DNA from: Gammaproteobacteria bacterium
GTDB lineage: Bacteria; Pseudomonadota; Gammaproteobacteria; Pseudomonadales; Pseudohongiellaceae
Reading direction: 5' to 3'
DNA length: 64,000 bases
Assembly (NCBI GenBank): GCA_002706685.1
Contig: PALV01000017.1
Coordinates: 189,105 to 253,104, forward strand
The position numbers and the translations under genes were made by a program. The notes under the pieces were generated by a model. That model saw only the letters and a program-made list of their open reading frames with translations, made no database searches and was not told where the DNA came from. The number at the start of each line of letters is the position of its first letter. The stretch's first letter is position 1. This document shows positions 463-48,427 of the stretch, piece after piece.

Positions 463-3059
<2,597 letters not shown>

Positions 3060-4836: not shown

Positions 4837-4845
4837 TAATTGCTC

Positions 4846-5319
4846 CTACCAGGAACTGACCAGAGTGAGTGGATAACGAGCGCCGCCCAGATAGTCTTCA
4901 ACAACCCTGGCGACAAGCGGACTGCGCAACTGTGATTCGCGTTCTGTCAGCTCCTGCAGTGTCAGCCAGTGCGTGCGGATGATGTCCGCATCAAGCGCGC
5001 GTTCACTGTGGTGATGCACGGCGCGGGCCGCGAAACAGCTGCGGATATAACATTCGCCATTGGCCGGGGCGATATATTGATAGAGTCCGATAAACGCGGT
5101 CAGCTCCACCTGCCAGGCGGTTTCTTCAAGCGCCTCTCGAACAGCGGCCTGTTGCAGCGTTTCATCAGCCTCCAGATGGCCCGCTGGCTGATTGAGCACG
5201 ACGCGGCCGTCAGCGCTTTCCTCGACAAACAGAAACCGCGGTGCGGTATCGCTGGCGTCGCGCAGCCAGTCAGGCTGCTCAACAACAACGGCCACCGTTT
5301 TGTGGGGTTGGAAACTCAT
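4846..5319 (-). CDS. nudJ: NUDIX hydrolase (NudJ-like)
   Basis: NQPAGHLEADETLQQAAVREALEETAW Nudix box; conserved position upstream of mnmA. Confidence 0.85.
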   Translation of the reverse strand: MSFQPHKTVAVVVEQPDWLRDASDTAPRFLFVEESADGRVVLNQPAGHLEADETLQQAAVREALEETAWQVELTAFIGLYQYIAPANGECYIRSCFAARAVHHHSERALDADIIRTHWLTLQELTERESQLRSPLVARVVEDYLGGARYPLTLVSSW

Positions 5320-5465
5320 GGTTTATTGCTGGATGACTGATTTTAAGGGGCGCAAGTTTACCGGATTTCCCCACAAATTGCTCGCTCGACGTCCCGACAC
5401 TCCCATTGCAGCGGCAAAGCATGGATAATGGTCGGCCGTTAGGTTTTACATTCAAGGACAGAGTC

Positions 5466-5966
5466 ATGAGCAAGACTGCACCTGAAGGTGTGCTGACGCA
5501 TCTGGATGCCGGGGGCAATGCCCGGATGGTGGATGTGAGTGAAAAAGCGATTACTAACCGAGTTGCGGTCGCCGCCGGAGAGGTCAGTATGCAATCGCAG
5601 ACACTATCGCTGATAGCCAGTGGCGGACATGCCAAAGGCGATGTGCTGGCGGTCGCTCGTGTAGCAGGCATCATGGCTGCCAAAAAGTGTCCCGATCTGA
5701 TCCCGCTCTGCCATCCTCTGCTGTTGAATTCCGTTGACGTGAGTTTTGATCTGGATTCAGACAATAATCGTGTGCTGATCGAGGCACGTTGCGGACTGGA
5801 TGCCAAAACAGGTGTCGAGATGGAGGCGCTGACAGCTGTATCTGTCGCCGCGTTGACTCTTTACGACATGTGCAAGGCAGTCGATAAAAACATGGTCATA
5901 GGCGATATAAGACTGATTTCCAAGACTGGCGGCAAATCAGGCGACTTCAAGCGGATTGCAGATTGA
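5466..5966 (+). CDS. moaC: Cyclic pyranopterin monophosphate synthase MoaC
   Basis: LTHLD...[35 protein letters not shown]; start set at ATG 5466. Confidence 0.97.
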
Positions 5967-6002
5967 CCTGAATCAGTAGATGAAAAACAGGATTGAATTT
6001 TA

Positions 6003-6254
6003 ATGTTGAATTTACAGTACTTTGCCAGTGTCAGGGAGCAGCTCGGCCGCGAGTCGGAGCAGCTGGATTTGCCAGCAGACGTAACTACCGTTGCGGATCT
6101 TGCGGCCTGGCTGGCAGAGCGCGGTGCGCCATGGACATTGCTGACTGATACGCAGCAGGTTCTAGTTGCCGTTGATCAGGAAGTTGTGGATCGCGCGCAA
6201 ACCTTGACCGGACAGGAAGAGGTAGCCTTCTTTCCGCCGATGACGGGAGGTTAG
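6003..6254 (+). CDS. moaD: Molybdopterin synthase sulfur carrier
   Basis: YFASVRE...EVAFFPPMTGG C-terminal di-Gly; between moaC and moaE. Confidence 0.95.
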   Translation: MLNLQYFASVREQLGRESEQLDLPADVTTVADLAAWLAERGAPWTLLTDTQQVLVAVDQEVVDRAQTLTGQEEVAFFPPMTGG

Positions 6255-6255
6255 G

Positions 6256-6768
6256 GTGTCTGCCCAGGAAATATTCGACGTGCGTGTGCAGACGGCTGAT
6301 TTCGACGTGGCACACGAATATCAGGGCATTATCGCGGATGCCGGTAATCCGGGTGCGGTCGTCATGTTCAGCGGACTGGTCAGGGATGTCGCATCGGGTT
6401 CTGGAATTGATGGCCAGGCTTCGGCCGCAGCGGGTCAGTCGCTGACACTTGAGCATTACCCGGGCATGACCGAGAAGGCGTTGCGGGACATTGTCGAGCA
6501 GGCCAGAGCGCGTTGGCCACTGCAGGCCGTGCGTGTGGTACATCGTGTCGGTAAACTGCTGCCGCACGATCAGATTGTGCTGGTGCTGACAGCCAGTGCG
6601 CACCGCGAGGCCGCATTTGCGGCTGCGGAATTCATTATGGACTATCTTAAAACGTCCGCTCCTTTCTGGAAGAAGCAGCGTTTTGGTGAGCAGAGCGAAT
6701 GGGTGGCATCACGCCAGTCGGATTACCAGCGGGCGGCGCGCTGGGAAAATAAGTCGGGAGATGAGTAG
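6256..6768 (+). CDS. moaE: Molybdopterin synthase catalytic subunit
   Basis: GAVVMFSGLVR, LEHYPGMTEK, HRVGKL, HREAAF, MDYLKTSAPFWKK. Confidence 0.96.
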   Translation: MSAQEIFDVRVQTADFDVAHEYQGIIADAGNPGAVVMFSGLVRDVASGSGIDGQASAAAGQSLTLEHYPGMTEKALRDIVEQARARWPLQAVRVVHRVGKLLPHDQIVLVLTASAHREAAFAAAEFIMDYLKTSAPFWKKQRFGEQSEWVASRQSDYQRAARWENKSGDE

Positions 6769-6792
6769 CCAGGCTGAACGAAGCAGCAATTC

Positions 6793-7350
6793 TCAGCGCC
6801 ACCAGCGCTCAGGCAGTTCTATCATTCGCCATTCGCCGGGACTCAGACTGCCCAGTGTCCAGTCACCAATCTGATATCGAATCAGCCGCAGTGTTGGATA
6901 TCCCACCGCCGCCGTCATGCGCCTTACCTGCCTGTTCCGACCTTCGGTTATCGTGAGCTGCACCCAGCTGTCGGGTATCTGCTTGCGGACCCGTATCGGC
7001 GGCACACGGGGCCACAAATCTGTTGGTTCGATCAGTTCGGCCTGCGTCGGTCGAGTGGGGCCGTCCTTCAGCACTATGCCATTGCGCAGCTGCATGAGTG
7101 CCTTGTCGTCGGGAATGCCCTCTACCTGTGCCCAGTAAGTTTTGGCAAGTTTATAGCGCGGTTCAGCAATTCGATGCTGGGTCTGACCATCGTCGGTCAG
7201 CAATAGCAGACCTTCCGAGTCTTTATCGAGTCGTCCGGCCGGATAGAATCCAGGCTTGTCGATATAGTGAGCAAGAGTCTGTTCCGGCACATCGCCAGTG
7301 AATTGGGACAGAACGTTGAAGGGCTTGTTGAACAGTATGAGATTTGGCAT
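6793..7350 (-). CDS. rluE: 23S rRNA pseudouridine synthase E
   Basis: ILFNKPFNVLSQF, YPAGRLDKDSEGLLLLTDDG, ITEGRNRQVRRMTAAVG; no S4 domain. Confidence 0.9.
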   Translation of the reverse strand: MPNLILFNKPFNVLSQFTGDVPEQTLAHYIDKPGFYPAGRLDKDSEGLLLLTDDGQTQHRIAEPRYKLAKTYWAQVEGIPDDKALMQLRNGIVLKDGPTRPTQAELIEPTDLWPRVPPIRVRKQIPDSWVQLTITEGRNRQVRRMTAAVGYPTLRLIRYQIGDWTLGSLSPGEWRMIELPERWWR

Positions 7351-7472
7351 GCGCGCAAGTATAGCCAAAACTGGTGAGTAAAAAGTTTTTTATCTCAATT
7401 CGATGGTCAGAACGAGGAGGAGGGGCTTGCGTGTGAGCTGAGGCGGGAGCCTGTTCGGCTCCCGCCGACTCG

Positions 7473-7691
7473 TCAGGCTTGTGATTGTGCGACAGGTTTG
7501 ATGTTGGTCGCGTGAAGGCCCTTTGGACCTTCCAGGGTTTCAAAGGTTACGGTTTGACCTGCTTTCAGGGTTTTATATCCGTCCATACCGATCGCCGAAT
7601 AGTGGGCGAACAGATCACCGCCACCGTCGTCTGGAAGAATAAAACCAAAACCTTTAGCGTTGTTGAACCATTTAACTTGCCCCATTGCCAT
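7473..7691 (-). CDS. cspD: Cold-shock domain protein CspD
   Basis: GQVKWFNNAKGFGFI...DLFAHYSAIGMDGYKTLKAGQ; divergent from clpS. Confidence 0.92.
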   Translation of the reverse strand: MAMGQVKWFNNAKGFGFILPDDGGGDLFAHYSAIGMDGYKTLKAGQTVTFETLEGPKGLHATNIKPVAQSQA

Positions 7692-7971
7692 CGTAATACT
7701 CCATTGCACGTATAGTTCTAATTTTAATTGTGTTACACGCCAGGTATGACCTGAGTGTTAATCCTTAACGTATGTAAGTCGTCCCTGCAAGGCTTTATTA
7801 TTCATCATTTTTGTCTAATTGCAACAGTCTGTAATATGGAAGTAGACTGAAGTGGCGTGTGATAATGTGGCTCTGAAATAAATATACGCCTGCGTCGATC
7901 TTTGCAAATAGCATCTTTGTTGGCAATCACAGGCGATCAGCCAGAAATCAGATAGAGAGAAACAGCACAAC

Positions 7972-8322
7972 ATGCGCAGTATTTTCGCTCAGTCGCCAGA
8001 CGGCCAGAAACCCGATCAGCACTCGGATCGCGGGCTGGCGACGGCGGCTGACAAGCCCAAACTCGCCAAGCCACCGTTATACAAAGTTTTACTTATGAAC
8101 GACGACTACACACCCATGGAATTTGTGGTGGGGGTGCTGGTAGAGTTCTTTCAGATGCCGGTGGAAAAGGCGACCCAGATCATGTTGAAGGTCCACACCG
8201 AGGGGAAGGCCGTCTGTGGCGTTTACAGTCGCGATGTCGCCGAAACCAAGGCTCAGCAGGTCAATGAGTTTTCGCGCGAGAACCAGCAACCATTGCTTTG
8301 CCACGTTGAAGTTGATCAGTAG
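7972..8322 (+). CDS. clpS: ClpA adaptor ClpS
   Basis: [17 protein letters not shown]...[13 protein letters not shown]. Confidence 0.97.
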
Positions 8323-8336
8323 GGGAGGAAGACATC

Positions 8337-10628
8337 ATGCTCAGCCGTGATCTGGAAGCGACCTTGAATGCCGCGTTTGCGAATGCGCGCAGCAAACGTC
8401 ACGAATACATGACCGTAGAACACCTGCTGTTGTCATTGCTGGACAATGATCTGGCGATTGATGTGCTGCTGCATTGCGGAGCGGATATTTCCCGTCTGCG
8501 TGCTGGCCTGGTGGACTATATTGAAGCTACCACGCCGGTTCTTGCCGAGCATGACGAGGAGCGTGACACTCAGCCGACACTCGGATTCCAGCGTGTGCTG
8601 CAGCGTGCCGTCTTCCACGTGCAGTCCTCCGGCCGCCAGGAAGTCAGCGGCGGCAATGTGCTGGTTGCCATCTTTAGCGAACAGGAGAGCCAGGCGGTGT
8701 ACCTGCTGAGTCAGCAGGAAATCGCCCGCCTTGATGTGGTCAACTACATCAGTCACGGTATCAGCAAGCAGCAGGGTGACTCGCCAGATCCCGAAAAATC
8801 AGAGCAGGAAGGCACTGAAGAAGAGGGCAGCGGTTCCGCCAGTGCACTGGAAAACTATGCCACCAACCTCAACGAGCTGGCCCGGCAGGGTCGCATTGAT
8901 CCGCTGATTGGCCGCGACAAAGAAGTACTGCGCCTGATTCAGATATTGTGTCGACGACGCAAGAACAATCCACTGTTGGTGGGCGAATCCGGTGTCGGTA
9001 AAACGGCAGTAGTTGAAGGTCTGGCCCGTATGGTGGTCGAAGACCAGGTGCCGGATGTCCTCAAGGGGCATGTGATCTATTCGCTGGATATGGGTGCATT
9101 GCTGGCTGGCACCAAGTACCGTGGTGATTTTGAAAAACGCTTCAAGACACTGCTGGCCGAGTTGAAGAAACAGCCGGAATCCGTTCTTTTTATTGATGAA
9201 ATTCATACCATCATCGGTGCCGGCGCGGCTTCGGGCGGTGTCATGGACGCCTCCAATCTGCTGAAACCCATCCTGACGTCGGGTGACTTACGCTGCGTGG
9301 GTTCGACTACCTATCAGGAATACCGTGGCATCTTTGACAAAGACAGGGCGCTGTCACGGCGGTTTCAGAAAATCGATATCGAAGAACCGGATGTGGAAAC
9401 GACCTACAAGATTCTCAAAGGCCTTAAGTCGCGCTTTGAGGCACACCATGATCTTCGCTACAGCGATAACGCGCTGCGTGCGGCCTCAGAGCTGGCAGGG
9501 CGCTACATCAATGACCGCTATATGCCTGACAAGGCAATCGATGTAATTGACGAGGCGGGCGCCTGGCAGCGGCTGCAGCCTGATAGCAAACGCAAGAAGC
9601 TGATACAGGCACCCGACATGGAGCGTGTTGTTGCGTCAATTGCGCGTATCCCGCCGCAGCACGTGACATCCTCTGATGTTGAAGCCCTGCGTGGTCTGGA
9701 AGCAAACCTGAAGATGGTGGTATTTGGTCAGGATGAGGCCATTGAATCACTGGCAACGGCTATCAAGCTGTCGCGCGCCGGTCTCAACACGCCGGATAAG
9801 CCGATCGGCTCCTATCTGTTTGCCGGTCCTACTGGTGTTGGTAAGACCGAAGTCAGCCGTCAGCTGGCGCGAATTATGGGGATTGAGTTGTTGCGTTTCG
9901 ATATGTCCGAATACATGGAGCGACACACCGTGTCGCGCCTGATCGGTGCGCCCCCCGGATACGTCGGTTTTGATCAGGGCGGACTGCTGACCGAGGCAGT
10001 GACCAAGCATCCGCACTGTGTGCTGTTGCTGGATGAGATCGAGAAGGCGCACCCGGATGTCTTTAACATTCTGCTGCAGGTGATGGACCACGGTACCTTG
10101 ACGGACAACAATGGGCGCAAGGCCGATTTCCGTAATGTCATCCTGATCATGACCACCAATGCGGGAGCCCAGGAAATGTCACGACCATCCATCGGGTTCA
10201 CGGCTCAGGATCACAGCAGCGATGGCATGGAAGTCATCAAACGCAGCTTTACACCAGAGTTCCGCAACCGTCTGGACGCCGTTGTTCAGTTTGGCCCATT
10301 GCAGCCTGAGACAATCCGCACTGTGGTCGACAAGTTCCTGGTGGAGCTGCAGGTGCAGCTGGACAGCAAGAAGGTCACGCTGAGTGTTGATGACAGCGCC
10401 CGCGACTGGTTTGCAGTCCATGGCTACAGCCCGCAGATGGGGGCACGTCCAATGGCTCGCTTGATCCAGGAGAAACTGAAGAAAGCGCTGGCCGAAGAGA
10501 TCCTGTTTGGCAAGCTGGCCGAGGGCGGCGAAGTCACCGTGTCCATCGTTAATGATGAGGTGGAGCTGGATATCAATCGGCGCGGCAAGAAGTCGGAAAG
10601 CCGGGCATTAAGCTCGGCAGACAGTTAG
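8337..10628 (+). CDS. clpA: ATP-dependent Clp protease ATPase ClpA
   Basis: [11 protein letters not shown], two Walker A motifs ([16 protein letters not shown]); follows clpS. Confidence 0.98.
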
Positions 10629-10655
10629 CCGCATGCAGGCCTGAGCGCTCGTTAA

Positions 10656-10874
10656 TTAACGAGCGCGGTAGGTGATGCGACCCTTGGTCAGGTCGTAGGG
10701 TGTCAACTCTACCTTGACCATGTCGCCGGTCAGGATGCGAATGTAATTCTTGCGCATTTTGCCCGAAATATGGGCGGTCACAATGTGGCCGTTTTCGAGT
10801 TTGACGCGGAACATGGTGTTCGGAAGGGTGTCTACCACTTCGCCTTCCATTTCAATCTGGTCTTCTTTAGCCAT
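10656..10874 (-). CDS. infA: Translation initiation factor IF-1
   Basis: [11 protein letters not shown]...[18 protein letters not shown]. Confidence 0.99.
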
Positions 10875-10968
10875 CTAAAAGAAATTCTCACTGCTTGAAG
10901 TAAGCGCGCATTTTGCCTGAATTTTTTGTCGTTGGCAAAGCCTCGTCCGGGTTCGACTCAAAGTTAAG

Positions 10969-11679
10969 TCAAGCGACAAGGCAATTGTCATCAAATTGCC
11001 AGTGCTTATACTGATTGTCTTCAACGCGATTTTCGGCCAACAGCGCAAGAAACCTCTGCCTGCTCATGGGGGCGGCCCCGAGGCTGGCCAGGTGATCGGT
11101 GGGCAGCTGGCAGTCAATCAGTGTGAATGACCATTGTTGCAGCTGCCGACACAGCGCCACAAACGCCAGCTTGGATGTATTGGGCTGCCGGCTGAACATG
11201 GATTCTCCAAAAAACATCCGTCCCAGGCTGATGCCATAAAGCCCGCCAACCAGGGTTTGTTCTTGCCAGACCTCAACCGAATGGGCATAACCCAGGTGGT
11301 ACAGCTTGATATAGGCCTGTTGCATGTCTTCGGTGATCCAGGTGCCGGGCTGACCATCCCGGTGCGCCGCGCACTGTTGTATGACCTGATCAAACGCACT
11401 GTCCATGGTGACACGGTAAAGTCCGCGTCGTATCAGTTTACCGAGGCTGCGAGAGCAGTGGACATCGGCTGGGTTGAGCACCATTCGGGGGTCGGGCGAC
11501 CACCACAGGATAGGGCTGCTGTCATCAAACCACGGGAATATGCCCTGTCGATAGGCCGCCAGCAGCCGCTCGGGCCGCAGATCTCCACCCACTGCCAGCA
11601 GGCCTGGCGGATCCTCCAGCGCGTTGTCGGCTGGAGGAAAGTGGAGGTTGTCGGCGTGCAGCCGTGTCAGCTGCCCCAT
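10969..11679 (-). CDS. aat: Leucyl/phenylalanyl-tRNA-protein transferase
   Basis: GLLAVGGDL, AYRQGIFPWF, WWSPDPR, GYAHSVEVW, FFGESMFS. Confidence 0.97.
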   Translation of the reverse strand: MGQLTRLHADNLHFPPADNALEDPPGLLAVGGDLRPERLLAAYRQGIFPWFDDSSPILWWSPDPRMVLNPADVHCSRSLGKLIRRGLYRVTMDSAFDQVIQQCAAHRDGQPGTWITEDMQQAYIKLYHLGYAHSVEVWQEQTLVGGLYGISLGRMFFGESMFSRQPNTSKLAFVALCRQLQQWSFTLIDCQLPTDHLASLGAAPMSRQRFLALLAENRVEDNQYKHWQFDDNCLVA

Positions 11680-11682
11680 GAA

Positions 11683-12651
<969 letters not shown>

Positions 12652-12839
12652 TTATGGAAAAGCTTGCGATTATACATCTATGGAGACTGGCATAGCGATT
12701 ATCAAGGGTTTGAGTGTGCTATGCTGCGCCCAATATGGCAGTGGGTTTTTCTCGAACTGGAATAATGCTTGTCTTGCTCCGTATAATTCTGGAAAATGAA
12801 TTAAATTGATTCTGCAGGTTTCTGAAAAGTTTTAAAAAT

Positions 12840-15161
12840 ATGTCCAAACAAAAGACCGCCAAGGACGACGGGATGGCCAGCCTGTCACAACGTATAGCCC
12901 GCGAGGGGACCCTCATTGCGGCTTTTCTGCTGGGCCTGTTTTTGTTGATTGCGCTGCTCAGTTACTCTCCGGATGATCCCGGATTTACCACCACGGGCAC
13001 CGGTGAGCCGGTACAGAATGCGGTCGGCAATATGGGCGCCTGGCTGGCCGACATTTTGCTGCACATGCTGGGTTACTTCGCATATGTCCTGCCATTTGCC
13101 CTGGGCTTCAAGGTTTACAGGCTGTTCCGAAAGTCCGATGCGGACCAGGCGTTCTCATGGGGCGTTGTATCCATAAAGGTAGCCGGTATTGTGCTGCTGA
13201 TCATTGGCGCCTGCACTCTGGCTACGCTGCACTTCAGTATTCCTACTGGCAGCACCTGGCCTGCAGGCGGTCTGATTGGCGCAGCAATGGCGGATGCCAG
13301 CATTCCAGTGCTGGCCATGCTTGGCAGTACTCTGGTGTACCTGGCAATCTTCCTGTTTGGTCTGACGGTGACCTTTGAGATTTCCTGGCTTTCAGTTGTG
13401 GATGCTATTGGTTACTGGACGATTCATGGGCTTGCCCGGGCACGAGAGCAGTTTGCTGACTGGCAGGAAAAGCGCGCAGAAGCTGGTAAGGTAAAACAGG
13501 CAGTAGAACGGCGCCGCAAGGCTCTGGATGTGCGTATCGAGAAAGAGAAAGTGCGCACGCCGCCCAAGATTGAACCGGTGATCAGTGCACCGCCGCCACG
13601 CAGCAAGCGGGTCGAGAAGGAACGCCAGGGCACGCTGTTTACCGGCAGCAACCCGGGTGAGCTGCCGGCAATCGGTCTGCTTGACGAAAACCGCAATGCC
13701 GGCAAAAAGGGTTATTCCACCGAGTCGCTGGAAGCGATGTCAAAACTGCTGGAGTTGAAATTGCAGGACTTTGGCATTGATATCGAAGTTACGTCGGTGC
13801 ATCCGGGACCGGTGATTACCCGTTTCGAAGTGCAGCCGGCCCCTGGTGTTAAGGCCAGTCGCATCACCAGCCTGGGCAAGGATCTGGCGCGGTCCCTGGC
13901 CGTCATTAGCGTGCGTGTGGTCGAGGTTATTCCAGGCAAGACTGTCATCGGGATCGAGATCCCCAATGAACAGCGCGAAATGATCCTGCTGAGCCAGGTG
14001 CTGGCGTCGCCGGAGTTCGACAAGGCGCAGTCCGCGCTGAGTATGGCGCTGGGGCACGATATTGTTGGCAAACCGGTCATCGTAGACCTTGCCAAGATGC
14101 CGCACCTGCTGGTGGCAGGTACCACAGGCTCAGGCAAGTCGGTGGGCATCAACGCCATGATCCTCAGCCTGCTTTACAAGTCGACACCGGAACATGTCCG
14201 GATGATCATGATCGACCCCAAGATGCTTGAACTGTCCGTGTATGACGGGATTCCTCACCTGCTGACACCAGTTGTAACCGACATGAAGGATGCCGCGAAT
14301 GCGCTGCGCTGGTCGGTAGCCGAAATGGAGCGACGCTACAAATTGATGTCTGCACTGGGCGTGCGGAATCTGGCGGGCTACAACAAAAAAGTCCAGGATG
14401 CGATTAAAGCGGGTGAGCCTATCATAGACCCTATCTGGAAACCCGATCCAATGGCGCTGCAGGATGACCAGGAAGCACCACCCCTTGAACCGTTGCCTAA
14501 TATAGTGGTGATTGTCGACGAACTTGCTGACATGATGATGGTAGTTGGCAAGAAAGTTGAAGAGTTGATCGCACGCATTGCGCAGAAGGCAAGGGCCGCC
14601 GGTATTCACCTCATCCTTGCCACACAGCGGCCCTCCGTGGACGTGTTGACTGGTCTGATCAAGGCCAATATCCCGACCCGACTGTCATTTATGGTGCAGT
14701 CCAAAGTGGACTCCCGCACGATTCTGGGTGAAGGCGGCGCTGAACAGCTGCTGGGCAATGGCGACATGCTGTTTCTGCCTCCCGGTGGTGGCCTGGCCAA
14801 ACGCGTGCACGGTGCCTTTGTCAGTGATGAAGAAGTACACCGTGTCGTGGCTGACTGGAAACAGCGTGGCGAGCCGGTCTATATCGAAGAGATCACCCAG
14901 GGTGTCGAAGACCGCGAAATGAATATGGGTATGGGTGGCGGCAGCGGCGAAGGCGGCGAAGAAGATGATGCGCTGTATGATGAAGCCGTAGCGTTTGTGA
15001 CCGAGTCCCGCAAAGCGTCTATATCGGCAGTGCAGCGTAAGTTGCGAATTGGTTACAACCGCGCCGCCCGGATGATCGAGGCGATGGAAGCAGCCGGTGT
15101 AGTGTCGGAAATGGGCGCCAATGGTAGTCGTGAAGTACTTGCTCCGCCGCCACCCCGATAA
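12840..15161 (+). CDS. ftsK: DNA translocase FtsK
   Basis: N-terminal TM segments, [14 protein letters not shown]-terminal gamma domain ([21 protein letters not shown]). Confidence 0.98.
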
Positions 15162-15196
15162 ACAGGATTACCGGCCAGGCTGATAGCCCTGGCCCT

Positions 15197-15913
15197 GTGA
15201 GCGATTCAATGATGAAGTTCTCTAAATTTGTTCCTGTCCTGCTGGTCAGCTGCCTGATCGCACTGCCTGCCGCGAGCTCGCAGTCTGCAGATGAGTCTAG
15301 CTCATCAATGGCCGCGGCTGACGATACCGCCTTGCTGCAGACCATGCTGTCTGATCTGAGCACGTTTCGTGCTGACGTCCGGCAACTGGTGATGGAGTCC
15401 AGTGGCAGTGTGCTGGAAGAAAGTCAGATTCTGTTTATGCTCAAGCGGCCAGACGGATTTTACTGGGAGACGCTGGAGCCGTTTCCGGAGTTGATTGTCA
15501 CCGACGGTGAATCTCTCTGGAATTACCAGCCCGATCTGCTGCAGTTGACCATTGATGACTGGCAGACCGATCAGTCAGAGCTCGCTGCCCAGCTGCTGGG
15601 CGGTCAGATAAATGCTGTTGCTGAATCCTACGCAATCGAAGCTGTGGCTATCGAGGGACAGCCCGGGAGCGCAGAGTTTTACCTGACGCCGCTTGATCCG
15701 TCCAGCCTCTACGAACGCGTCACCCTGTATTTCGAAAACCGCGAACCCGCCTCGATTCTCCTTGTCAGTACCAATGGACAGCGCACCTTGTGGGAGTTCT
15801 ACAATCGTCAGGTCAACCTGTCTCTGGCGTCCGATCAGTTTGTTTTTCCGGTGCCAGACGATGAATTTCTTGACGTCATCGACAATCGCAGTCAAACCGC
15901 CCCGGCCCCCTGA
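15197..15913 (+). CDS. lolA: Outer-membrane lipoprotein chaperone LolA
   Basis: LKRPDGFYWE...IVTDGESLWNYQPDLLQLT; ftsK-lolA-rarA order; start may be 15209. Confidence 0.85.
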   Translation: MSDSMMKFSKFVPVLLVSCLIALPAASSQSADESSSSMAAADDTALLQTMLSDLSTFRADVRQLVMESSGSVLEESQILFMLKRPDGFYWETLEPFPELIVTDGESLWNYQPDLLQLTIDDWQTDQSELAAQLLGGQINAVAESYAIEAVAIEGQPGSAEFYLTPLDPSSLYERVTLYFENREPASILLVSTNGQRTLWEFYNRQVNLSLASDQFVFPVPDDEFLDVIDNRSQTAPAP

Positions 15914-15924
15914 AGTGAACCCAG

Positions 15925-17298
15925 ATGCAAGCTGATCTTGACGAGCTTGAAGACACATCACTTGCCTCGCAGCCCCTGGCAGCCCGCATGCGGCCGCGCA
16001 CACTGGAAGAATACATAGGCCAGAGTCACATCATGGGGGCAGGTAAGCCGCTGCGGCAGGCGCTAGAACGCGGTGCTCTGCACTCAATGATTTTCTGGGG
16101 CCCTCCCGGAACCGGCAAGACCACGCTGGCCCGTCTGATTGCACAGCGTGCCGATGCTGCTTTCGAAAGTCTGTCGGCCGTGCTGTCCGGAGTAAAGGAC
16201 ATCCGCGCCGCCGTCGACAGGGCACGTATCAGACGGCAGCAACATGTCCGCGCAACCCTGCTGTTCGTTGATGAGGTGCACAGATTCAATAAGAGCCAGC
16301 AGGATGCGTTTCTGCCGCACATCGAAGATGGCACACTGATATTTGTTGGTGCTACCACTGAAAACCCGTCGTTTGAGCTGAATAACGCCCTGTTGTCCAG
16401 AGCCCGCACCTATGTGCTGAAAAGCCTGAGTGATGAAGAGTTGCTGCAGGTGCTGGCTGCGGCACTCGCCGACGCTGACAGGGGGCTGGGCCGGCGCGCG
16501 CTGCAACTGGATGAAGCAGCGATGTCCCGACTGGCCGCAACAGCCGACGGCGATGCGCGGCGAGCCCTGAATCTGCTGGAGATTGCTTCTGATCTGGTTG
16601 AGGATGGTGGCACTGTAGATGATTCCATTCTGGACCAGGTGCTGCAGGGATTCAGCCGCCGCTTTGACAAGGGTGGTGATGTGTTCTACGAGCAGATTTC
16701 AGCCCTTCACAAAGCCGTGCGAGGCTCATCACCGGATGCGGCACTCTACTGGATGGTGCGGATGCTCGACGGCGGTTGTGATCCGGTCTATGTGGCCCGC
16801 CGGCTGGTTCGCATGGCCAGTGAGGACATAGGCAATGCCGACCCCAGGGCGCTGCAACTGGCCATGAATGCCTGGGATGCGCAAACCCGGCTGGGCAGCC
16901 CGGAGGGAGAACTGGTGCTGGCTCAGGCAGTTATCTACCTGGCAGCGGCACCCAAGAGTAACGCGGTTTACATGGCGTTTAATGACGTTCAGGCCGATAT
17001 AGCCGCACAACCGTCCTATGAGGTACCTGAGCACCTGCGTAACGCACCAACTCGTCTGATGAAGGATATGCAGTATGGTGCTGAGTATCGCTATGCTCAC
17101 GATGAGCCTGGCAGTTATGCCGCCGGCGAGAACTATTTTCCAGAGCCACTGAAGGACAGACAGTACTACCAGCCGGGCAGCAACGGCCTGGAGCTTAAAA
17201 TTGCGGAGAAACTGGCACATCTGCGCACCCTTGATGCAGCCAGCCCAACGCAGCGTTATGCAAAGCAGGGACGTGCTTCCTCAGGAGGGCGTAAATGA
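15925..17298 (+). CDS. rarA: Replication-associated recombination protein RarA/MgsA
   Basis: [50 protein letters not shown]. Confidence 0.97.
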
Positions 17299-36121: not shown

Positions 36122-37333
36122 TCACGGCTTCACCCGTTTGTGACGGGCTGATGCATGGCGCTCTGCGCGTTCGACATCAATATAGCGATCGGTGATCGCG
36201 CTCGATCCGTGTCCGGCGTCATCCCGGACATGTTCCCGGGGACGGTATTTAACATCCTCCGAGATGCCGGTATGTCGTAACCAGTGCACGGTTGCTTCGG
36301 CCAGTCGTTCTGCTTCTTCTACAGACCCTTCTTCGCGCAGCTTTGCTTCAGCGCGATCAAAACATTTTTGCACAATGCCGCGTATCTGACGGGTACTGGT
36401 GATGCCACCCTTGCCACGGGTCTTGTGAATAAGCGGCGTAGACTCGCCGGGCAGCGGCAGGGAGGACAGCCCGCGTGATTCGCGATATCGGCGCAGTGCA
36501 CGCAACATGTCATCACTGACAGAAACTTCCCTTTCCTTGTTGCCCTTGCCAACGGTCAGAAACCACCAGTTGCCCTCCAGGTCGCGTTGAAAGTGTCCCA
36601 TCTGCGGTATCCAGCGTTCGGTCTCGACCAGTTCCGATACCCTGAGATACATGGCAAACAGGGCGCTCATCACGAACAAGGTGCGTTCATGGACTTCCGG
36701 CTCCTGCTGTGCCATCTCTTCGGCACATTCGATCACCACATCCCACTGTATCTGGGATAAGCGACGAATCTTGTCCTGTCCCTGACGTTTGCGCAGAAAT
36801 TTGCCTTTCTGGCGAATACGGGCGACCGGGTTGGCCTTTAGGCGGTTTTCCTGCACCAGATAATTAAAAAAGCTGCTCAGCACCGAGAACTTGGCCTGCA
36901 GCGCTGATTGAGAAAGGGAGTAGGGCTGGTCTGGCGCAGTCTGATAGGGGCGCCAGTCAGGGTTGGCCACTCTTTGTCCCTGCCTGTCGATAAAGCGTGG
37001 CACCTGCTTCTGGCCTATCCAGGCATCCGGGGGCTGACGCGAGAACTCGACGTAGGATTCAAGATGCTCGCGCTGGATCTCAGGCAGTGACAGACCGGCA
37101 ACCAGCCACATCCATTGCAGAAAATGCTCCAACTCACGGCGATAGGCGGTAAAGGTGTCGGGACTGCCACGATAGCTGTATAGAAACTCGCTGGCGAAAC
37201 GGAAGTCATCTGCGGCGCTGTCGGGTAATGGTTTTTTGCAGGAAGCCAGGAGTTCCGGACTGAGCACTGGTGGTTCACGCCAGGGGTTGGGCATGCTGTC
37301 CAGCGTGTCAAACAAAGGGTGTGGTGATTTCAT
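36122..37333 (-). CDS. Standalone tyrosine recombinase (phage integrase family)
   Basis: Core-binding TFTAYRRELEHFLQW; intact catalytic set: LRVSEL (R), GKGNK (K), HWLRH (HxxR), DAGH (H), TDRY (Y). Confidence 0.93.
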   Translation of the reverse strand: MKSPHPLFDTLDSMPNPWREPPVLSPELLASCKKPLPDSAADDFRFASEFLYSYRGSPDTFTAYRRELEHFLQWMWLVAGLSLPEIQREHLESYVEFSRQPPDAWIGQKQVPRFIDRQGQRVANPDWRPYQTAPDQPYSLSQSALQAKFSVLSSFFNYLVQENRLKANPVARIRQKGKFLRKRQGQDKIRRLSQIQWDVVIECAEEMAQQEPEVHERTLFVMSALFAMYLRVSELVETERWIPQMGHFQRDLEGNWWFLTVGKGNKEREVSVSDDMLRALRRYRESRGLSSLPLPGESTPLIHKTRGKGGITSTRQIRGIVQKCFDRAEAKLREEGSVEEAERLAEATVHWLRHTGISEDVKYRPREHVRDDAGHGSSAITDRYIDVERAERHASARHKRVKP

Positions 37334-44182: not shown

Positions 44183-44313
44183 TTCGATTCCGCCAAAGTC
44201 TCACCGGTGTTTATATTGTAAGCATCGGTGAGCAATGAAAATGGACCCGCACTGATAGATATATTTCATATAAAACAATCAGGTAGTGGCTTTGCCTGGT
44301 GTGCTGACGTAGG

Positions 44314-44853
44314 TCAGGGGAGCCGGTTGTCCAGGTCCAGTGAGAAACTCCCATTGACTTTGTTGTTTACTGAAACCTTGTAATCGCCTGCCGCTAACTC
44401 AAAGACTGGTAAGGGGATAGTTTTCGAAAAAACCACAGAATCAGCAGTGCAGCTGATCTCCGGCGGCGAAAGAGACTCTGGGTCAAAATACACAAACACC
44501 TTAAATGCACTATCTTCCTTATCAACCGCGTATGCGCCAACCTCAACACAACTCGAAATCCAGCCTGAGACTTTCAAAAAGACCTGAACCGGACGCTCGG
44601 TTGTTTTGATAATTTCTAAGGCATCAACAGTGTTTATTAGCTGGCCTTCGTCAACTGATACAAGCGACCAGGACAGCTCAGATTCTTCGCTTCTTAGAGT
44701 CGCATTCAGAAATTTACCTGGCTCGCCTTCAAAACCTATGAACGGAATAGTCAGGGTATACTTCTGGTCAAAACTTAATTCAGTCGTAGCAGTCTGAGAA
44801 AAGAGCGTCTGGGGTATTAGAACGACGAACAAACCGATTAACTGTGATTTCAT
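44314..44853 (-). CDS. Exported hypothetical protein
   Basis: Signal-peptide-like N-terminus, two Cys, AT-richer codon use than its neighbours. Confidence 0.7.
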   Translation of the reverse strand: MKSQLIGLFVVLIPQTLFSQTATTELSFDQKYTLTIPFIGFEGEPGKFLNATLRSEESELSWSLVSVDEGQLINTVDALEIIKTTERPVQVFLKVSGWISSCVEVGAYAVDKEDSAFKVFVYFDPESLSPPEISCTADSVVFSKTIPLPVFELAAGDYKVSVNNKVNGSFSLDLDNRLP

Positions 44854-44954
44854 TGCTGTATTCCTTTACGTTGCAAAATTACCGTGAGCTACAAATTTAA
44901 ACGACAGGTGCAGTCGGGCACAACTCATCAGCAGGGTGCCATAACAATCGCCAC

Positions 44955-44976
44955 TATTTCCGGTAATCTTTATTAC
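44955..44976 (+). repeat. attL: 22-bp direct repeat
   Basis: TATTTCCGGTAATCTTTATTAC, identical to 48395-48416. Confidence 0.92.
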
Positions 44977-45000
44977 TAAATTCAATGACTTGCAGCTCCC

Positions 45001-45180
45001 CTAAAAGGGGAGCTTCCTGAATTTGTTAGCTACCAGGTATGACACCGCTGTTTCTAACCGTCTCAATTCCCTATCTATCTGTAAAAATTCATCACCTTCC
45101 GCAACGCTATGCTTTTCTAGCACAGCGTTCATTTCTTTAACTATCTCAGCCTCTGCCTCGTTAAACGTTACCTGGTACAT
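45001..45180 (-). CDS. 59-aa hypothetical protein (below the ORF-track cutoff)
   Basis: MYQVTFNEAEAEIVKEMNAVLEKHSVAEGDEFLQIDRELRRLETAVSYLVANKFRKLPF; GGGAG SD upstream; stop overlaps the AGCTCCCCT-AAA-AGGGGAGCT hairpin. Confidence 0.6.
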   Translation of the reverse strand: MYQVTFNEAEAEIVKEMNAVLEKHSVAEGDEFLQIDRELRRLETAVSYLVANKFRKLPF

Positions 45181-45187
45181 AGTATAT

Positions 45188-45470
45188 GCTCCCGTATCAG
45201 CACCCCCAGCGGGTGCCTCTCGGGAGCCTGCGTACCTCCACGCGCAGGCCTGTCAATGGTGTCCTGGACACGCTTGCGCTTGCCATTGACAGGCTGAGCA
45301 TGGAGGTATGCTGAGCGGACGTAGGCATACGCGCTCTGGCTTACGGAGTGAGGGTTTTATAACGTGGACGGGGGGCTTGCTCCCTGTAGGCCCTTACAGG
45401 GCCTTTCCGCGGCTCCAGAACCCCTCGATCGACAAGGTGCGGTGAATGTAATACTGCACCTTTGTACCAT
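45188..45470. other. Hairpin-dense noncoding region, probable ssDNA/rolling-circle origin region
   Basis: Nested inverted repeats including GCTCCCG/CGGGAGC, GCCTGTCAATGG/CCATTGACAGGC (12 bp), TACCTCCA/TGGAGGTA, AAGGTGC/GCACCTT. Confidence 0.55.
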
Positions 45471-45486
45471 TTTTGGTAATTTCTCT

Positions 45487-45536
45487 ACCTGGCGGGGTTT
45501 GCTGGTGAGCCCTCGAACCGGCAAAGCCTGCCAGGT
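45487..45536. repeat. Structured repeat R1 (about 50-nt hairpin)
   Basis: ACCTGGC...TTTGCTGGTGAGCCCTCGAACCGGCAAAGC...GCCAGGT; 30-bp core matches R2 with 1 mismatch. Confidence 0.85.
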
Positions 45537-45613
45537 CCTCAGCCGTCCTTCCTGTCAAACTTTAACCAGGTAAATCCCGTCATACGTATCAACCACCACA
45601 TATCGGTATAACT

Positions 45614-45838
45614 ATGACATCGTCCTGGTATGAGTCTTACGGCAGCAATGTTCTACACTTGCTGCCCACTGACGAAGAGCATCTGCACAAGGATGACTAT
45701 ATCCAAGCCCTCTGCGGGCATGTCGTTTTCGGCAACTGGGCGACCAGGTCAGACTCTGCTGATGCACGTCAGCCACTTCCTCCCCAATGCAAACGATGCC
45801 AAAAGAAGGCCCTTTCCGGCTCCATCGCTAAATCGTAG
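45614..45838 (+). CDS. 74-aa hypothetical protein with a possible Zn-binding motif
   Basis: H...ALCG...CKRC; no clear SD; followed by a 10-bp inverted repeat at 45842-45869. Confidence 0.45.
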   Translation: MTSSWYESYGSNVLHLLPTDEEHLHKDDYIQALCGHVVFGNWATRSDSADARQPLPPQCKRCQKKALSGSIAKS

Positions 45839-45932
45839 GGCAGTACCGGTGCTATGTATCACCGGTACTTAGTCTCATGGGTGAGACTTTGCGTGCAAAT
45901 ACAGCGCCTTTTACCATTTATGCTACTCGCCC

Positions 45933-45984
45933 CACCTGGGTGGCTTTGCTGGTGAGTCCTCGAACCGGCAAAGCATCCCAGGTG
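45933..45984. repeat. Structured repeat R2 (about 52-nt hairpin)
   Basis: CACCTGGG...TTTGCTGGTGAGTCCTCGAACCGGCAAAGC...CCCAGGTG; directly after the XRE stop codon. Confidence 0.85.
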
Positions 45985-45985
45985 C

Positions 45986-46399
45986 TCAACCTTCCTTGCG
46001 CTTCAATATCGGATCGAGGTCGCCGGACGACCATAGGATGTTTGGTAAAATCCCGTTACGTTCGCGTTTAAGCATCTTCTGAGCCGCTTTAGCCATGCAG
46101 TAGTGATCTACCATGTCGATCACAACCGCTTTGCTATCGTCGTCCAGCTTTTCTGCACGTTCCAGTGTGGTCGCCAGCAGGGCAGACAGCCCAACTTCCT
46201 CGCCGTCCTGTAGCAGAGAGTTTGGCGAGCATTCCAGGGCATTTATCAGCTTGTATACCGTCGACAGCTTCGGATCGGCGCTGTCGCTGCTCTCCATCGT
46301 TGATATGTGGCTGCTCTTAATCCCTGCCATAGCAGCCAGTTGGTGCTGAGTCAGGTTTTTATCCCTTCTGAGCCTTCTTAGATTTTCCCCAAAAGACAT
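45986..46399 (-). CDS. XRE-family HTH repressor (RstR/cI-like)
   Basis: FGENLRRLRRDKNLTQHQLAAMAGIKSSHISTMES...DPKLSTVYKLINALECS; divergent from rep. Confidence 0.9.
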   Translation of the reverse strand: MSFGENLRRLRRDKNLTQHQLAAMAGIKSSHISTMESSDSADPKLSTVYKLINALECSPNSLLQDGEEVGLSALLATTLERAEKLDDDSKAVVIDMVDHYCMAKAAQKMLKRERNGILPNILWSSGDLDPILKRKEG

Positions 46400-46445
46400 A
46401 TAAGACCCTCATAGAAGTGTTTGACCCCATCAGAGCTGAAAGTAT

Positions 46446-46515
46446 ATACCCCCTGTAGAGGGTATTTTGTTGACTATCCCTTGCGCCTGGTATAAAAATT
46501 CCCCTGTAGGGGTAT
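46446..46515. promoter_or_regulatory. Two operator-like palindromes flanking a promoter-like sequence between XRE and rep
   Basis: ATACCCCCTGTAGAGGGTAT (46446-46465) and ATTCCCCTGTAGGGGTAT (46498-46515); TTGACT...TGGTATAAA between them (15-bp spacing, extended -10). Confidence 0.6.
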
Positions 46516-46584
46516 TGACAGGTTTTTATCCAGGTGATTTTCGAGCCACATTTCGACATTGAAAAAGAGCATGAGCACTCTGGC

Positions 46585-47595
46585 ATGCTTGATTGGCTTT
46601 CCCTGAAAATTAACCTTATGCATCTCTCCGAGCCTGTTGTACGCCACCTGCAATCACTCTCTGGCATGGTCTTTAAGATAAATGCCCTAACAGGGGAAGA
46701 AGACTGGAGGACTTATTGCTGGACCAAGATACCTTCTGACTCAACGGATATTCATTTTCGGGTAACAGACTCACTTCATATTCAAGGAAGCCCCGCCCGC
46801 ATAGGTATGCCCAACAACGTATTTGGCGCCATTGATATTCGCTATTGCGCGCAGAAGATGATCGGTTTCGCAGCCCAGCAACTCGGTTATCCACTACCTG
46901 TTATCGAGTCCTGGGGGTGCACCAGGATCGACGTCACTCGCAACTATCTGATGCAATCAGAGTCCGAAGCTCGACAGGCACTGGCTTACTTGAAACAGGC
47001 TCCAGAGAGCCGCCAAGCTCATAGCTACGAGCAAAATGGTTTCTACATAGGCAAAGGTTCGTCGTTACAGAAGGGAAAAATATATCTAAAGGGTAGGGAA
47101 GCCGTAGCCAATCAACGTAAAAAGAGGAGGGCGCACTACACTGAAGAACAACTGAGCAAATGCCAGAGATTACTAAGAGCTGAACATACAATTGGCCGTC
47201 ATTTGCTACGCCGTTTGCGTGAACAGCAAGCCATAGAATGGTACCAACTTAGTCCGAATTATCTAATTCAAATGCATAATTTATATTTTAAAGAATATTT
47301 CTCCGATATGGAGCTGACTGATATGTCAACAATACTTGAGAAGCTAACTACTGTATCGCCTACTGAAGGCCAGGCCCGTGCAGCCTATGACTGTTACGTA
47401 CGTATTCGAATGGTTGGTTATGAACAAGCCAGGGTTACTTTCACAAAACCCTCGTGGTATCGCCACATAAAACACCTTAAGGCTATTGGTCTCACTCGCG
47501 CGGATCTCCAGCCCATTAATGTCATCCCGCTCCGTAAGCGAGCTATTGAGCTGTCGCAGCCCATTCGTCACTGGGACGATATTCGGGCAGCTTAA
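46585..47595 (+). CDS. Phage/plasmid replication initiator, gene II/X (Cri-like) family
   Basis: MLDWLSLKI start, IQGSPAR, NNVFG, TRIDVTRNY, KIYLKG, LLRAEHTIG, YRHIKHLKAIG pattern typical of gpII/X-type Reps; ORF-track GTG start is 46534. Confidence 0.85.
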   Translation: MLDWLSLKINLMHLSEPVVRHLQSLSGMVFKINALTGEEDWRTYCWTKIPSDSTDIHFRVTDSLHIQGSPARIGMPNNVFGAIDIRYCAQKMIGFAAQQLGYPLPVIESWGCTRIDVTRNYLMQSESEARQALAYLKQAPESRQAHSYEQNGFYIGKGSSLQKGKIYLKGREAVANQRKKRRAHYTEEQLSKCQRLLRAEHTIGRHLLRRLREQQAIEWYQLSPNYLIQMHNLYFKEYFSDMELTDMSTILEKLTTVSPTEGQARAAYDCYVRIRMVGYEQARVTFTKPSWYRHIKHLKAIGLTRADLQPINVIPLRKRAIELSQPIRHWDDIRAA

Positions 47596-47657
47596 TCGGT
47601 GCCAATTAAACGTTACCGTAACAAAAAATTAAACATGGTCTTTAGGAGATTCCCGCG

Positions 47658-47999
47658 ATGGTCACAACCACCAACAATCCTGAACTTGTTAATCTAATTG
47701 GTATGCAGTTTCACGTCCGCGACATCGATGACTTTGAAGAATATCCAAAGAGCGTCAGACACATTCTCGCTACCAACGCACTGAACGCAGATGTGTTTAT
47801 CCATTCAATTGTGTTCAACGCCGACACTCCGCCTGATATCGGTCTTGTTAACGATATTGATTCACCCGATGACATGGAATATTACAAGCCTTGGCAGTTG
47901 GTGTTTTCACCCCCATCCGGGTCATCTCAGCCACTACCAGGTGGTTTATTCAACAAAGACGGTACATTGATTGCGCTTATCCATCATAAGCAGATTTAG
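47658..47999 (+). CDS. 113-aa acidic hypothetical protein
   Basis: AGGAG SD upstream; directly downstream of rep; no family recognised. Confidence 0.7.
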   Translation: MVTTTNNPELVNLIGMQFHVRDIDDFEEYPKSVRHILATNALNADVFIHSIVFNADTPPDIGLVNDIDSPDDMEYYKPWQLVFSPPSGSSQPLPGGLFNKDGTLIALIHHKQI

Positions 48000-48098
48000 G
48001 CCGCTTAGATGGCCTCGCTTCAGTTCGAGCACTCGCCGACAACTGTCCATTGGTTTGTCCAGGTAGATGGACTTTAGGCCAGCTGCCTGGACACACCA

Positions 48099-48386
48099 AT
48101 GACCTTACGCGCGGCTAACAAAGATTCGGAAATTACTGATCACACGTGGGATGGTCTGATCAGGATCGCACTGAAATACCAAGGAAGGATGGGCCGGTAT
48201 CACAATATCCGCTATGATCGAAAGCACCTGTACATTGTGCTGAACGTTCGCCAGTTAGCGTCGATCCTCGTGGATAAAAAGATAATCAGCTCTTGGCCTG
48301 CTGGGTTCACGCGGTTAACCACGATAGAAGAGGCTGTCATCAGAGAATTTAAGAAGCTTCACGGGAAAACCCACCTAGATACCTAG
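48099..48386 (+). CDS. 95-aa basic hypothetical protein
   Basis: ORF ends 9 bp before attR; weak SD; no family recognised. Confidence 0.55.
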   Translation: MTLRAANKDSEITDHTWDGLIRIALKYQGRMGRYHNIRYDRKHLYIVLNVRQLASILVDKKIISSWPAGFTRLTTIEEAVIREFKKLHGKTHLDT

Positions 48387-48394
48387 GGTTATCT

Positions 48395-48427
48395 TATTTC
48401 CGGTAATCTTTATTACCGGAAATAGTG
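48395..48427 (+). repeat. attR: 22-bp direct repeat inside a palindrome
   Basis: TATTTCCGGTAA-TCTTTA-TTACCGGAAATA(GTG); right arm is the exact reverse complement of 44952-44966. Confidence 0.92.

Follow-up and report, generated by a model that had tools for sequence, protein, structure and literature searches.

Integrative mobile elements that exploit Xer (IMEXs) lack an integrase and enter the chromosome at dif with the help of the host's Xer recombinases. To our knowledge, IMEX biology rests almost entirely on hosts with the paired recombinases XerC and XerD (XerCD hosts, such as Vibrio, Xanthomonas and Neisseria), and for the single recombinase XerL we know of one described IMEX, LME-1, and one bacterial order. 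This work concerns an element of 3,440 bp in a stretch of 64,000 nucleotides (the window) that corresponds to positions 189,105 to 253,104 of contig PALV01000017.1 (C17) of assembly GCA_002706685.1. The source genome, from a gammaproteobacterium of the Pseudohongiellaceae, is 99.99% complete, with 3.64 Mb in 24 contigs. Coordinates are those of the window unless a contig is named. We believe the element is very probably an integrase-less rolling-circle IMEX lodged in the XerL-served dif of Pseudohongiella (Pseudohongiellaceae). By analogy with the systems described below, its logic is that of an ordinary IMEX that makes use of an unusual Xer system; where XerL is concerned, LME-1 is the precedent.

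LME-1 of Legionella pneumophila exploits dif and XerL through an att site that is a 22-bp subset of dif (PMC9765430). XerL is necessary and sufficient for recombination at the Legionella dif, and LME-1 integration leaves one intact and one modified dif, the modified one being regarded as stabilising the integrated state (PMC9765430). The element in the window shares the target, the presumed enzyme and the 22-bp subset. The differences lie in the details of the site and in the host. The intact dif of LME-1 is upstream and its modified copy has three bases changed, whereas here most of one arm is replaced. The gene xerL is more than 400 kb from dif in L. pneumophila and 0.2-35 kb from it here, and the hosts belong to different orders, the Legionellales in the one case and a lineage outside them in the other. 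LME-1 is also a much larger phage-like episome, not a 3.4-kb rolling-circle element of the gene II type. Other single-recombinase systems, XerS with difSL in streptococci and XerH with difH in Helicobacter and Campylobacter, likewise combine one enzyme, a fairly symmetric dif and a linked xer gene (PMC9765430). The recombinase here differs in belonging to the XerL lineage, scoring 35 bits against the NCBIfam XerS model, and the arms of its site are perfectly symmetric.

As a replicon the element resembles TLC. Both are small, integrase-less and of the rolling-circle type, with a Rep of the Cri/Phage_CRI family and a repressor of that Rep (tlcR in TLC, an XRE gene here). Both have a double-stranded attP with one good and one degenerate arm, integrate at dif and form tandems or arrays there. 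Each has a small gene beside attP, XafT in TLC (PMC6744903) and an open reading frame (ORF) of 95 aa here. They differ in that TLC uses XerC plus XerD where a single XerL serves here, and in that this element is without DUF3653 (XafT), is smaller (3.4 kb), shares with Cri only the Pfam family of its Rep and has no identified helper phage. The combination that marks the TLC type, a Cri-family Rep and a repressor without morphogenesis genes, is what we find in the element. VGJ-phi, CTX-phi and RS1 are comparable in being related to filamentous phages, integrase-less, integrated at dif and prone to tandem arrays; those phages have morphogenesis genes, however, and this element has none. The attP of CTX is folded single-stranded DNA (ssDNA) made from two inverted sites. 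A single dif-like site on the circle, as here, implies recombination of a double-stranded attP, unlike CTX. We did consider a CTX-type folded attP for this element and rejected it, since no second dif-like site lies near its attP.

The borders of the element are clear. An earlier note on this stretch had reported exact 22-bp direct repeats 3440 bp apart, and they are there: TATTTCCGGTAATCTTTATTAC occurs exactly twice in the window, at 44955-44976 and 48395-48416. No third copy was found anywhere in the 3.64-Mb genome, and shuffled sequences gave 0 matches even at 3 mismatches. One unit of the element spans 44955-48394 (plus strand), and its length of 3,440 bp is given by the repeat spacing, by a circle-type contig and by the spacing of tandem copies. 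The crossover falls somewhere within the 22-bp core, so the borders are fixed only to the core. The left junction reads CAC-core-TAAATTC and the right junction TCT-core-CGGAAATAGTG. When one unit is removed and the flanks are joined they form a perfect 36-bp palindrome, CACTATTTCCGGTAAT-CTTT-ATTACCGGAAATAGTG. The content of guanine plus cytosine (GC) is 43-50% across the element against about 55% in the flanks.

The attachment site of the element, attP, is GGGTTATCT-TATTTCCGGTAAT-CTTT-ATTAC-TAAATTC. It mimics the arm-centre-arm plan of dif with one good arm and one degenerate arm, copying from dif 22 bp that take in the left arm, the centre (CTTT) and, of the right arm, 5 bp. This core is duplicated on integration, and attL and attR are as predicted from it. 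The hybrid attL (44952-44987) has the chromosomal left arm and CTTT centre joined to the degenerate right arm of the element, CACTATTTCCGGTAATCTTTATTAC followed by TAAATTCAATG; the same junction is present in independent metagenome contigs. The regenerated dif, attR (48392-48427), is TCTTATTTCCGGTAAT-CTTT-ATTACCGGAAATAGTG, in which the 3 outermost bases alone differ from the empty site, and these 3 positions are variable among relatives as well. Judged from their arms, attR would be a functionally intact dif and attL a crippled hybrid.

The gene content agrees with this picture of an element that depends on its host. No tyrosine recombinase was found inside it: the genome-wide PF00589 matches all lie outside, its ORFs of at least 59 aa were scanned against Pfam and PHROGs, and apart from the Rep and XRE genes its ORFs are too short for a recombinase. 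Genes for morphogenesis, coat or ssDNA binding were likewise missing from the element in these Pfam and PHROG scans, the whole genome is without Zot, and no orphan ORF appeared hydrophobic or coat-like when judged by eye. The claim that integrase, Zot or assembly ATPase and coat-like ORFs are all missing thus stands. What the element does encode is a rolling-circle initiator, Rep, of 353 aa (46534-47595, plus strand), which the profile check places in the gene II/X family as had been proposed (Pfam Phage_CRI 1.4e-17; PHROG 702 'replication protein' 4.7e-42; a weak G2P_X_C match as well). Divergent from it is the expected XRE/Cro-CI type repressor of 137 aa (45986-46399, minus strand; HTH_3 2.8e-11), which shares 73% identity with the XRE of a 2.4-kb element in G012, a complete genome from the same genus, and 36-46% with other family members. 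The Rep, the layout of attP and the integration at dif bear out the note's identification of an integrase-less rolling-circle element of the TLC/IMEX type.

Where we disagree with the earlier note is over the target, which it took to be a non-dif site. The palindrome behaves as the chromosome's own dif in a single-recombinase XerL system, and, on the evidence of sequence and position, is almost certainly the dif of this organism, with XerL as its recombinase. The host site is perfectly symmetric, ATTTCCGGTAAT-CTTT-ATTACCGGAAAT, and intergenic, with a 4-bp centre and arms that are perfect over 16 bp, of which 13 bp are widely conserved. It matches in layout and position the described dif/XerL system, in which an AT-rich intergenic site of about 30 bp with uninterrupted inverted-repeat arms lies near the terminus. 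Each of 20 relatives has a single copy of the palindrome, at a distance of 0.2-35 kb from xerL (7.6 kb in this genome). More than 120 species genomes under the titles Pseudohongiella, Pseudohongiellaceae or OM182 contain the 24-bp core of the palindrome without change, with one match per retrieved stretch, and in 2 relatives symmetric changes in both arms, CTAATTCCGG...CCGGAATTAG, preserve the dyad. No canonical gammaproteobacterial dif was found in the genome within 7 mismatches.

The position of the site points the same way. The FtsK-orienting polar sequences (KOPS), GGGNAGGG, number 22 on the plus strand and 3 on the minus strand to the left of the site on C17, and 0 and 10 to the right. 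They flip between 231,412 and 239,743 of the contig, which brackets the site at 234,056-237,531, and the cumulative GC skew has its plateau and maximum at 230-261 kb, covering the site. In G012, a complete genome of 3,345,119 bp, dnaA lies at 208 and the site at 1,677,501, or 50.1% of the way round the chromosome. The absence of XerCD and of a canonical dif, the orthology of XerL, the conserved linked site and the terminus position together lead to the conclusion that the palindrome is dif.

The enzyme for this site would be the single Xer-type tyrosine recombinase of 403 aa encoded by xerL at 36122-37333 (minus strand; catalytic residues predicted R231, H350, R353, H375, Y384). This gene had already been singled out as a likely non-XerCD host recombinase, and comparison strengthens the case. 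Over its full length the protein is 53% identical to XerL of L. pneumophila (E 8e-147) and 57% identical to that of Aquicella, the reference sequences being those of Table S3 of Nicholson et al. 2022 (PMC9765430). The tyrosine of its RYID motif, Y384, aligns with the Y387 region of L. pneumophila Lpg1867 (XerL). Of the six tyrosine-recombinase matches in the genome, one is a protein of 1,039 aa; the other five measure 380-406 aa, and none of these comes near the NCBIfam cut-offs for XerC, XerD, XerS or XerA. No XerC, XerD, XerS or XerH was found in the genome. The xerL gene is single-copy in 21 of 21 sampled genomes of the genus; it also occurs elsewhere in the family and, beyond it, in several families of the same order. 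Among 41 relatives XerD/XerC and XerL are mutually exclusive, true XerD/XerC being confined to those without XerL, and within this order XerL is strictly complementary to XerC/XerD. Given its orthology, linkage and position, we presume that XerL integrates and excises the element.

It is important to realize that the published range of XerL is the Legionellales only; we found no report in the literature of XerL outside that order. The original search was confined to it (PMC9765430). The close homologues seen here are titled Pseudohongiella, Pseudohongiellaceae or OM182 and thus fall beyond the original limit, and XerL orthologues are present in 87 of 400 evenly sampled Gammaproteobacteria genomes, representing 77 of 321 genera (42-66% identity except one at 38%; E <= 1e-60). 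The limit to Legionellales reflects a restricted search, so these results extend the range of XerL and do not contradict the earlier work.

Evidence for mobility comes from natural alleles with zero, one and two copies. Identical copies of the element, in the same chromosomal context, occur in many marine metagenomes. The empty site that the earlier note expected exists in three metagenome contigs (L049-L051), in which a 1,460-bp alignment to the joined flanks stands at 99.1% and the palindrome is present once and intact. Two contigs (L042, L043) hold one copy. Three others (L037, L040, L041) hold two tandem copies spaced 3440 bp with an intact dif at the right end, and the junction between the copies is exactly the predicted attP, GGGTTATCT-core-TAAATTC. 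The tandem structure shows that attR was used for the second integration, as fits a working, regenerated dif at the right end and an inactivated hybrid at the left. A contig from the Joint Genome Institute (JGI) of 3,539 bp has a 99-bp terminal overlap that reduces it to 3,440 bp; it is 100% identical to the element and contains attP. The junction called for by the earlier note is present in this circular-looking contig and between the tandem copies. In a Tara scaffold (L036, 6297-6506) an attP-type junction is followed after 188 bp by an intact dif, probably a tandem copy collapsed in assembly.

These observations fit together in a cycle of the following kind. Rep would nick a conserved non-coding motif (45838-45890, described below) and drive rolling-circle replication of the 3.44-kb circle, with the XRE protein repressing Rep. 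The double-stranded circle would offer a half-site attP made of the full left arm, CTTT and 5 bp of the right arm. XerL would recombine this attP with dif, possibly aided by the 95-aa protein, and the product would be an attL with a crippled right arm, from which excision would be disfavoured as reported for LME-1, together with an intact dif. The cell would keep its dimer resolution and a further copy could enter at attR. Repeated integration would build tandem arrays, which might serve as templates for new Rep-driven circles, as in CTX-type prophages.

Several points weigh against this reading and should be stated together. The action of XerL on the site is inferred from orthology, linkage and position. 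The JGI contig of 3,539 bp was considered as proof of a free circle and rejected, since tandem arrays carry the same junction; a contig that looks circular is indistinguishable from a tandem array, and the chromosomal contig from the same sample breaks just inside the element. The cumulative GC skew peaks about 10-15 kb rightward of the site and not on it. Finally, some 25 bp immediately left of dif (window 44925-44954) differ between the occupied allele (…GGGTGCCATAACAATCGCCAC) and the empty one of L049-L051 (…GGGGTGGTATAAAGACTACTCTGC), so the alleles are not strictly isogenic; the remaining flanks are about 99% identical between them.

The relatives of the element show what else this Rep lineage has done. 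There are 51 Rep homologues, mostly on contigs of 3-4 kb, and most of the relatives are metagenomic. A peptide-pattern scan of the genome contigs for Rep gave no match, and a search of 400 genomes of the order returned the copy in the window, one decayed copy at 61% and a few at 34-36% in four other genomes. One relative, L013 (Rep 80% identical), is a contig of 3,649 bp with a 30-bp overlap whose attP is ACTATTTCCGGTAATCTTTA followed by unrelated sequence; in L014 (70%) no convincing attP was identified. In L015, from the XerCD host Gilvimarinus, the element (Rep 61%) ends at the canonical dif-type sequence TATGCGCATAATGTATATTATGTTAAAT. L018, a JGI contig from another XerCD host, has at 2828-16147 two tandem mini-elements of 3,144 bp (Rep 63%) and then tandem inoviruses of 5,537 bp (G5P, gp8-like, Zot). 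All of these units are joined through sites of the type ACTGCGCATAAT, and mini-element and inovirus share only 39 bp, at the junction (…CATCACCACCCTGTTGACCGCTTTTGAACTGCGCATAAT). In L020, from Motiliproteus, a 45%-identical Rep belongs to a complete tandem inovirus beside dif. These close Rep relatives, L015, L018 and L020, integrate at dif in XerCD hosts as the VGJ and CTX types do. One lineage of gene-II-type mini-replicons has changed its target between XerCD-dif and XerL-dif. To the left of the mini-element in L015 (5811-5959) there are also two inverted dif-like sites about 120 bp apart. They resemble the remnant of a CTX-type folded attP, which suggests a further IMEX in that array.

The XerL dif has other occupants as well. 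In G012 (locus L034, C1:1672000-1690000) two tandem copies of a 2,442-bp element occupy it at 5508-10415 of that locus. Besides the XRE already mentioned, this element has a Rep 26% identical to ours with strong Phage_CRI and G2P_X_C matches and a 91-aa homologue of the 95-aa ORF. In G843 (L180, C4:236000-254000) an inovirus prophage of 5.3 kb lies at 4439-9766, flanked by a hybrid attL and an intact dif of the XerL type; xerL itself is 1.7 kb upstream. Its genes are a CI-like repressor, a Rep of the ORF2-G2P type, a 45-aa coat-like ORF, a TspB-like protein of 476 aa, DUF2523 and Zot, and such an inovirus is a possible helper type for the mini-elements. Elements with unrelated Reps (22-26% identical) use the same attP, and the G012 element and the G843 inovirus share the geometry of attL and intact dif. 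On these comparisons target choice is a matter of the host Xer system and not of the type of Rep. Four viral contigs in IMG/VR (L054-L057) also carry an exact 18-bp half-dif, TATTTCCGGTAATCTTTA; two of them, L056 and L057, are rich in AT and combine a dif mimic that is nearly complete with a 423-aa ORF that looks terminase-like by eye from its translation. Tailed phages may use the XerL dif too.

We believe this matters for more than one small element. XerL/dif would be the dimer-resolution system of an abundant marine gammaproteobacterial family, with orthologues in about a fifth of the sampled Gammaproteobacteria genomes, and its dif is a hot spot for unrelated hitchhikers: the 3.4-kb element, the 2.4-kb element and a true inovirus. 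This is a natural and non-pathogenic system for asking how a single recombinase with a symmetric site accepts a half-site attP, and the alleles with 0, 1 and 2 copies suit the question of whether XerL needs an activator encoded by the element.

How the element spreads is harder to decide, and the odds are about even between a satellite carried by a helper inovirus and a plain integrative plasmid. The most serious rival to the satellite is an autonomous rolling-circle plasmid with the same integration logic, which would use its dif-like site for parking and would never be packaged by a filamentous phage; we give it somewhat less than an even chance. In its favour, morphogenesis, coat and ssDNA-binding genes are all lacking, dozens of homologues assemble as stand-alone contigs of 3-4 kb, and the accessory ORFs differ between relatives. 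The search for the co-resident helper that the earlier note envisaged also speaks for it, for neither Zot nor an inovirus was found in this genome, and inoviruses are rare in the family (2 of 121 genomes have one). However, the Rep family is typical of filamentous phages and their satellites, and a 45%-identical Rep is part of the complete inovirus of L020. The array in L018 is a hint of satellite life, because it holds two related mini-elements (63% identical) together with a tandem inovirus in one dif, 39 bp being shared at the junction. An inovirus occupies the same XerL dif in the same bacterial family, and the strong hairpins of the element fold better on the plus strand, as expected of ssDNA signals.

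The IMEX reading itself has two much weaker competitors. It is very improbable that the palindrome is a private att site of a domesticated phage-type integrase (the gene at 36122-37333) with no role in dimer resolution, the element being an ordinary satellite of an integrase-bearing island. The size of 403 aa is that of a phage integrase, and the protein scores weakly against the Pfam Phage_integrase and the Xer models. Against this, the recombinase is a single-copy core gene across the genus, extends to several other families and to 87 of 400 Gammaproteobacteria, is present exactly where XerCD is absent and is orthologous to the enzyme that is necessary and sufficient at the Legionella dif (PMC9765430), while its site lies at the convergence of KOPS, opposite dnaA. 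Slightly less probable again is insertion by Rep itself, nicking and joining at a hairpin of the palindrome without XerL. In its favour, a perfect palindrome could form a hairpin by extrusion, and the TLC literature (PMC6744903) describes Rep as a nuclease of the HUH class. Against it, the 22 bp common to attP and attB have the arm-centre-arm layout seen in the core of a tyrosine-recombinase site, Reps only 22-26% identical go with the same attP, the same Rep lineage is found at dif of the XerCD type where the host has XerCD, and some 880 bp separate attP from the conserved Rep-linked motif. Target choice tracks the host Xer system, which argues against Rep-mediated insertion.

Within the preferred IMEX reading, the small protein beside attP deserves separate comment. 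The 95-aa ORF (48099-48386, plus strand) ends with a stop codon 8 bp before attP and has no Pfam or PHROG match. Its homologues adjoin XerL-type attP in L013, in the G012 element (91 aa) and in L053, where attP is TATTTCCGGTAAT-TCTT, and the Reps of these elements are 22-80% identical. It is a small family: 1.8 billion representatives yielded 18 clusters. The predicted model is a confident three-helix bundle (predicted local distance difference test, pLDDT, 89.8), for which Foldseek against the PDB returned generic helical bundles at best (E > 0.7). XafT is encoded in the 1-kb region flanking the attP of TLC (PMC6744903), and by analogy the 95-aa protein could be an accessory factor specific to XerL recombination, a functional counterpart of XafT, though we regard this as a tentative idea that is more probably wrong than right. 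Equally speculative is the larger scenario in which the protein stimulates XerL, or guides it to an attP of which one arm is crippled, and forms with attP a portable 'integration cassette', grafted onto at least three unrelated rolling-circle backbones, so that the satellite lineage would switch between XerCD-dif and XerL-dif by a swap of end modules. No match to DUF3653 (XafT) was found in any ORF of the element or of its relatives, those of XerCD type included. An accessory role is also opposed by the G843 inovirus, which integrates without such a gene.

The non-coding motif at 45838-45890 (plus strand; about 48 nt) consists of GTACCGGTG-N7-CACCGGTAC and then an TTAGTCTCATGGGTGAGAC hairpin. 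It is 87-98% identical in L013, L014, L015 and L018, whose Rep DNA is 65-71% identical, and absent from elements with unrelated Reps. This makes it a candidate for the plus-strand origin and nick site of this Rep lineage. The hairpins mentioned above belong to two 89-nt repeats (repeat family D1; plus strand), 81% identical to each other. Copy 1 (45462-45550) contains a duplicated 3' end of the XRE gene (..RKDG*) and a long hairpin that folds as plus-strand ssDNA at -23 kcal/mol (z -4.7), its minus-strand counterpart being weaker. Copy 2 (45909-45997) has its hairpin directly 3' of the XRE stop codon; on the plus strand its z is -3.4, and it is more stable there than on the minus strand. The twin units look like a partial duplication of the last XRE codons (RKEG*/RKDG*) with the hairpin, and their sequence is unconserved in related elements. 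A minus-strand origin or a packaging signal are possible roles. An Rfam search gave nothing beyond sub-threshold noise from eukaryotic miRNA.

The remaining genes complete the set of orphans, put at three or four in the earlier note; with the 95-aa ORF there are four without a family match. At the left end an ORF of 59 aa (45001-45180, minus strand) is called as a gene in metagenome records, has no Pfam or PHROG match and was not found in related elements. The ORF of 74 aa (45614-45838, plus strand) is a doubtful gene, uncalled in metagenome records, with a zf-HC3 hit below the cut-off (E 0.05). After Rep comes an ORF of 113 aa (47658-47999, plus strand), without a Pfam or PHROG match and 45% identical to a 115-aa ORF of L013. 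Outside the element, between a phosphatase gene and dif, lies a segment of low GC (44183-44951; 43-49%) with a 179-aa gene that metagenome records assign to Pfam ORF11_beta. The segment is present in the empty-site alleles, so it is not part of the element. It is missing from the close relative G013, whose sequence to the right of dif is unrelated as well. The neighbourhood of dif varies greatly, which has been reported for Legionella too.

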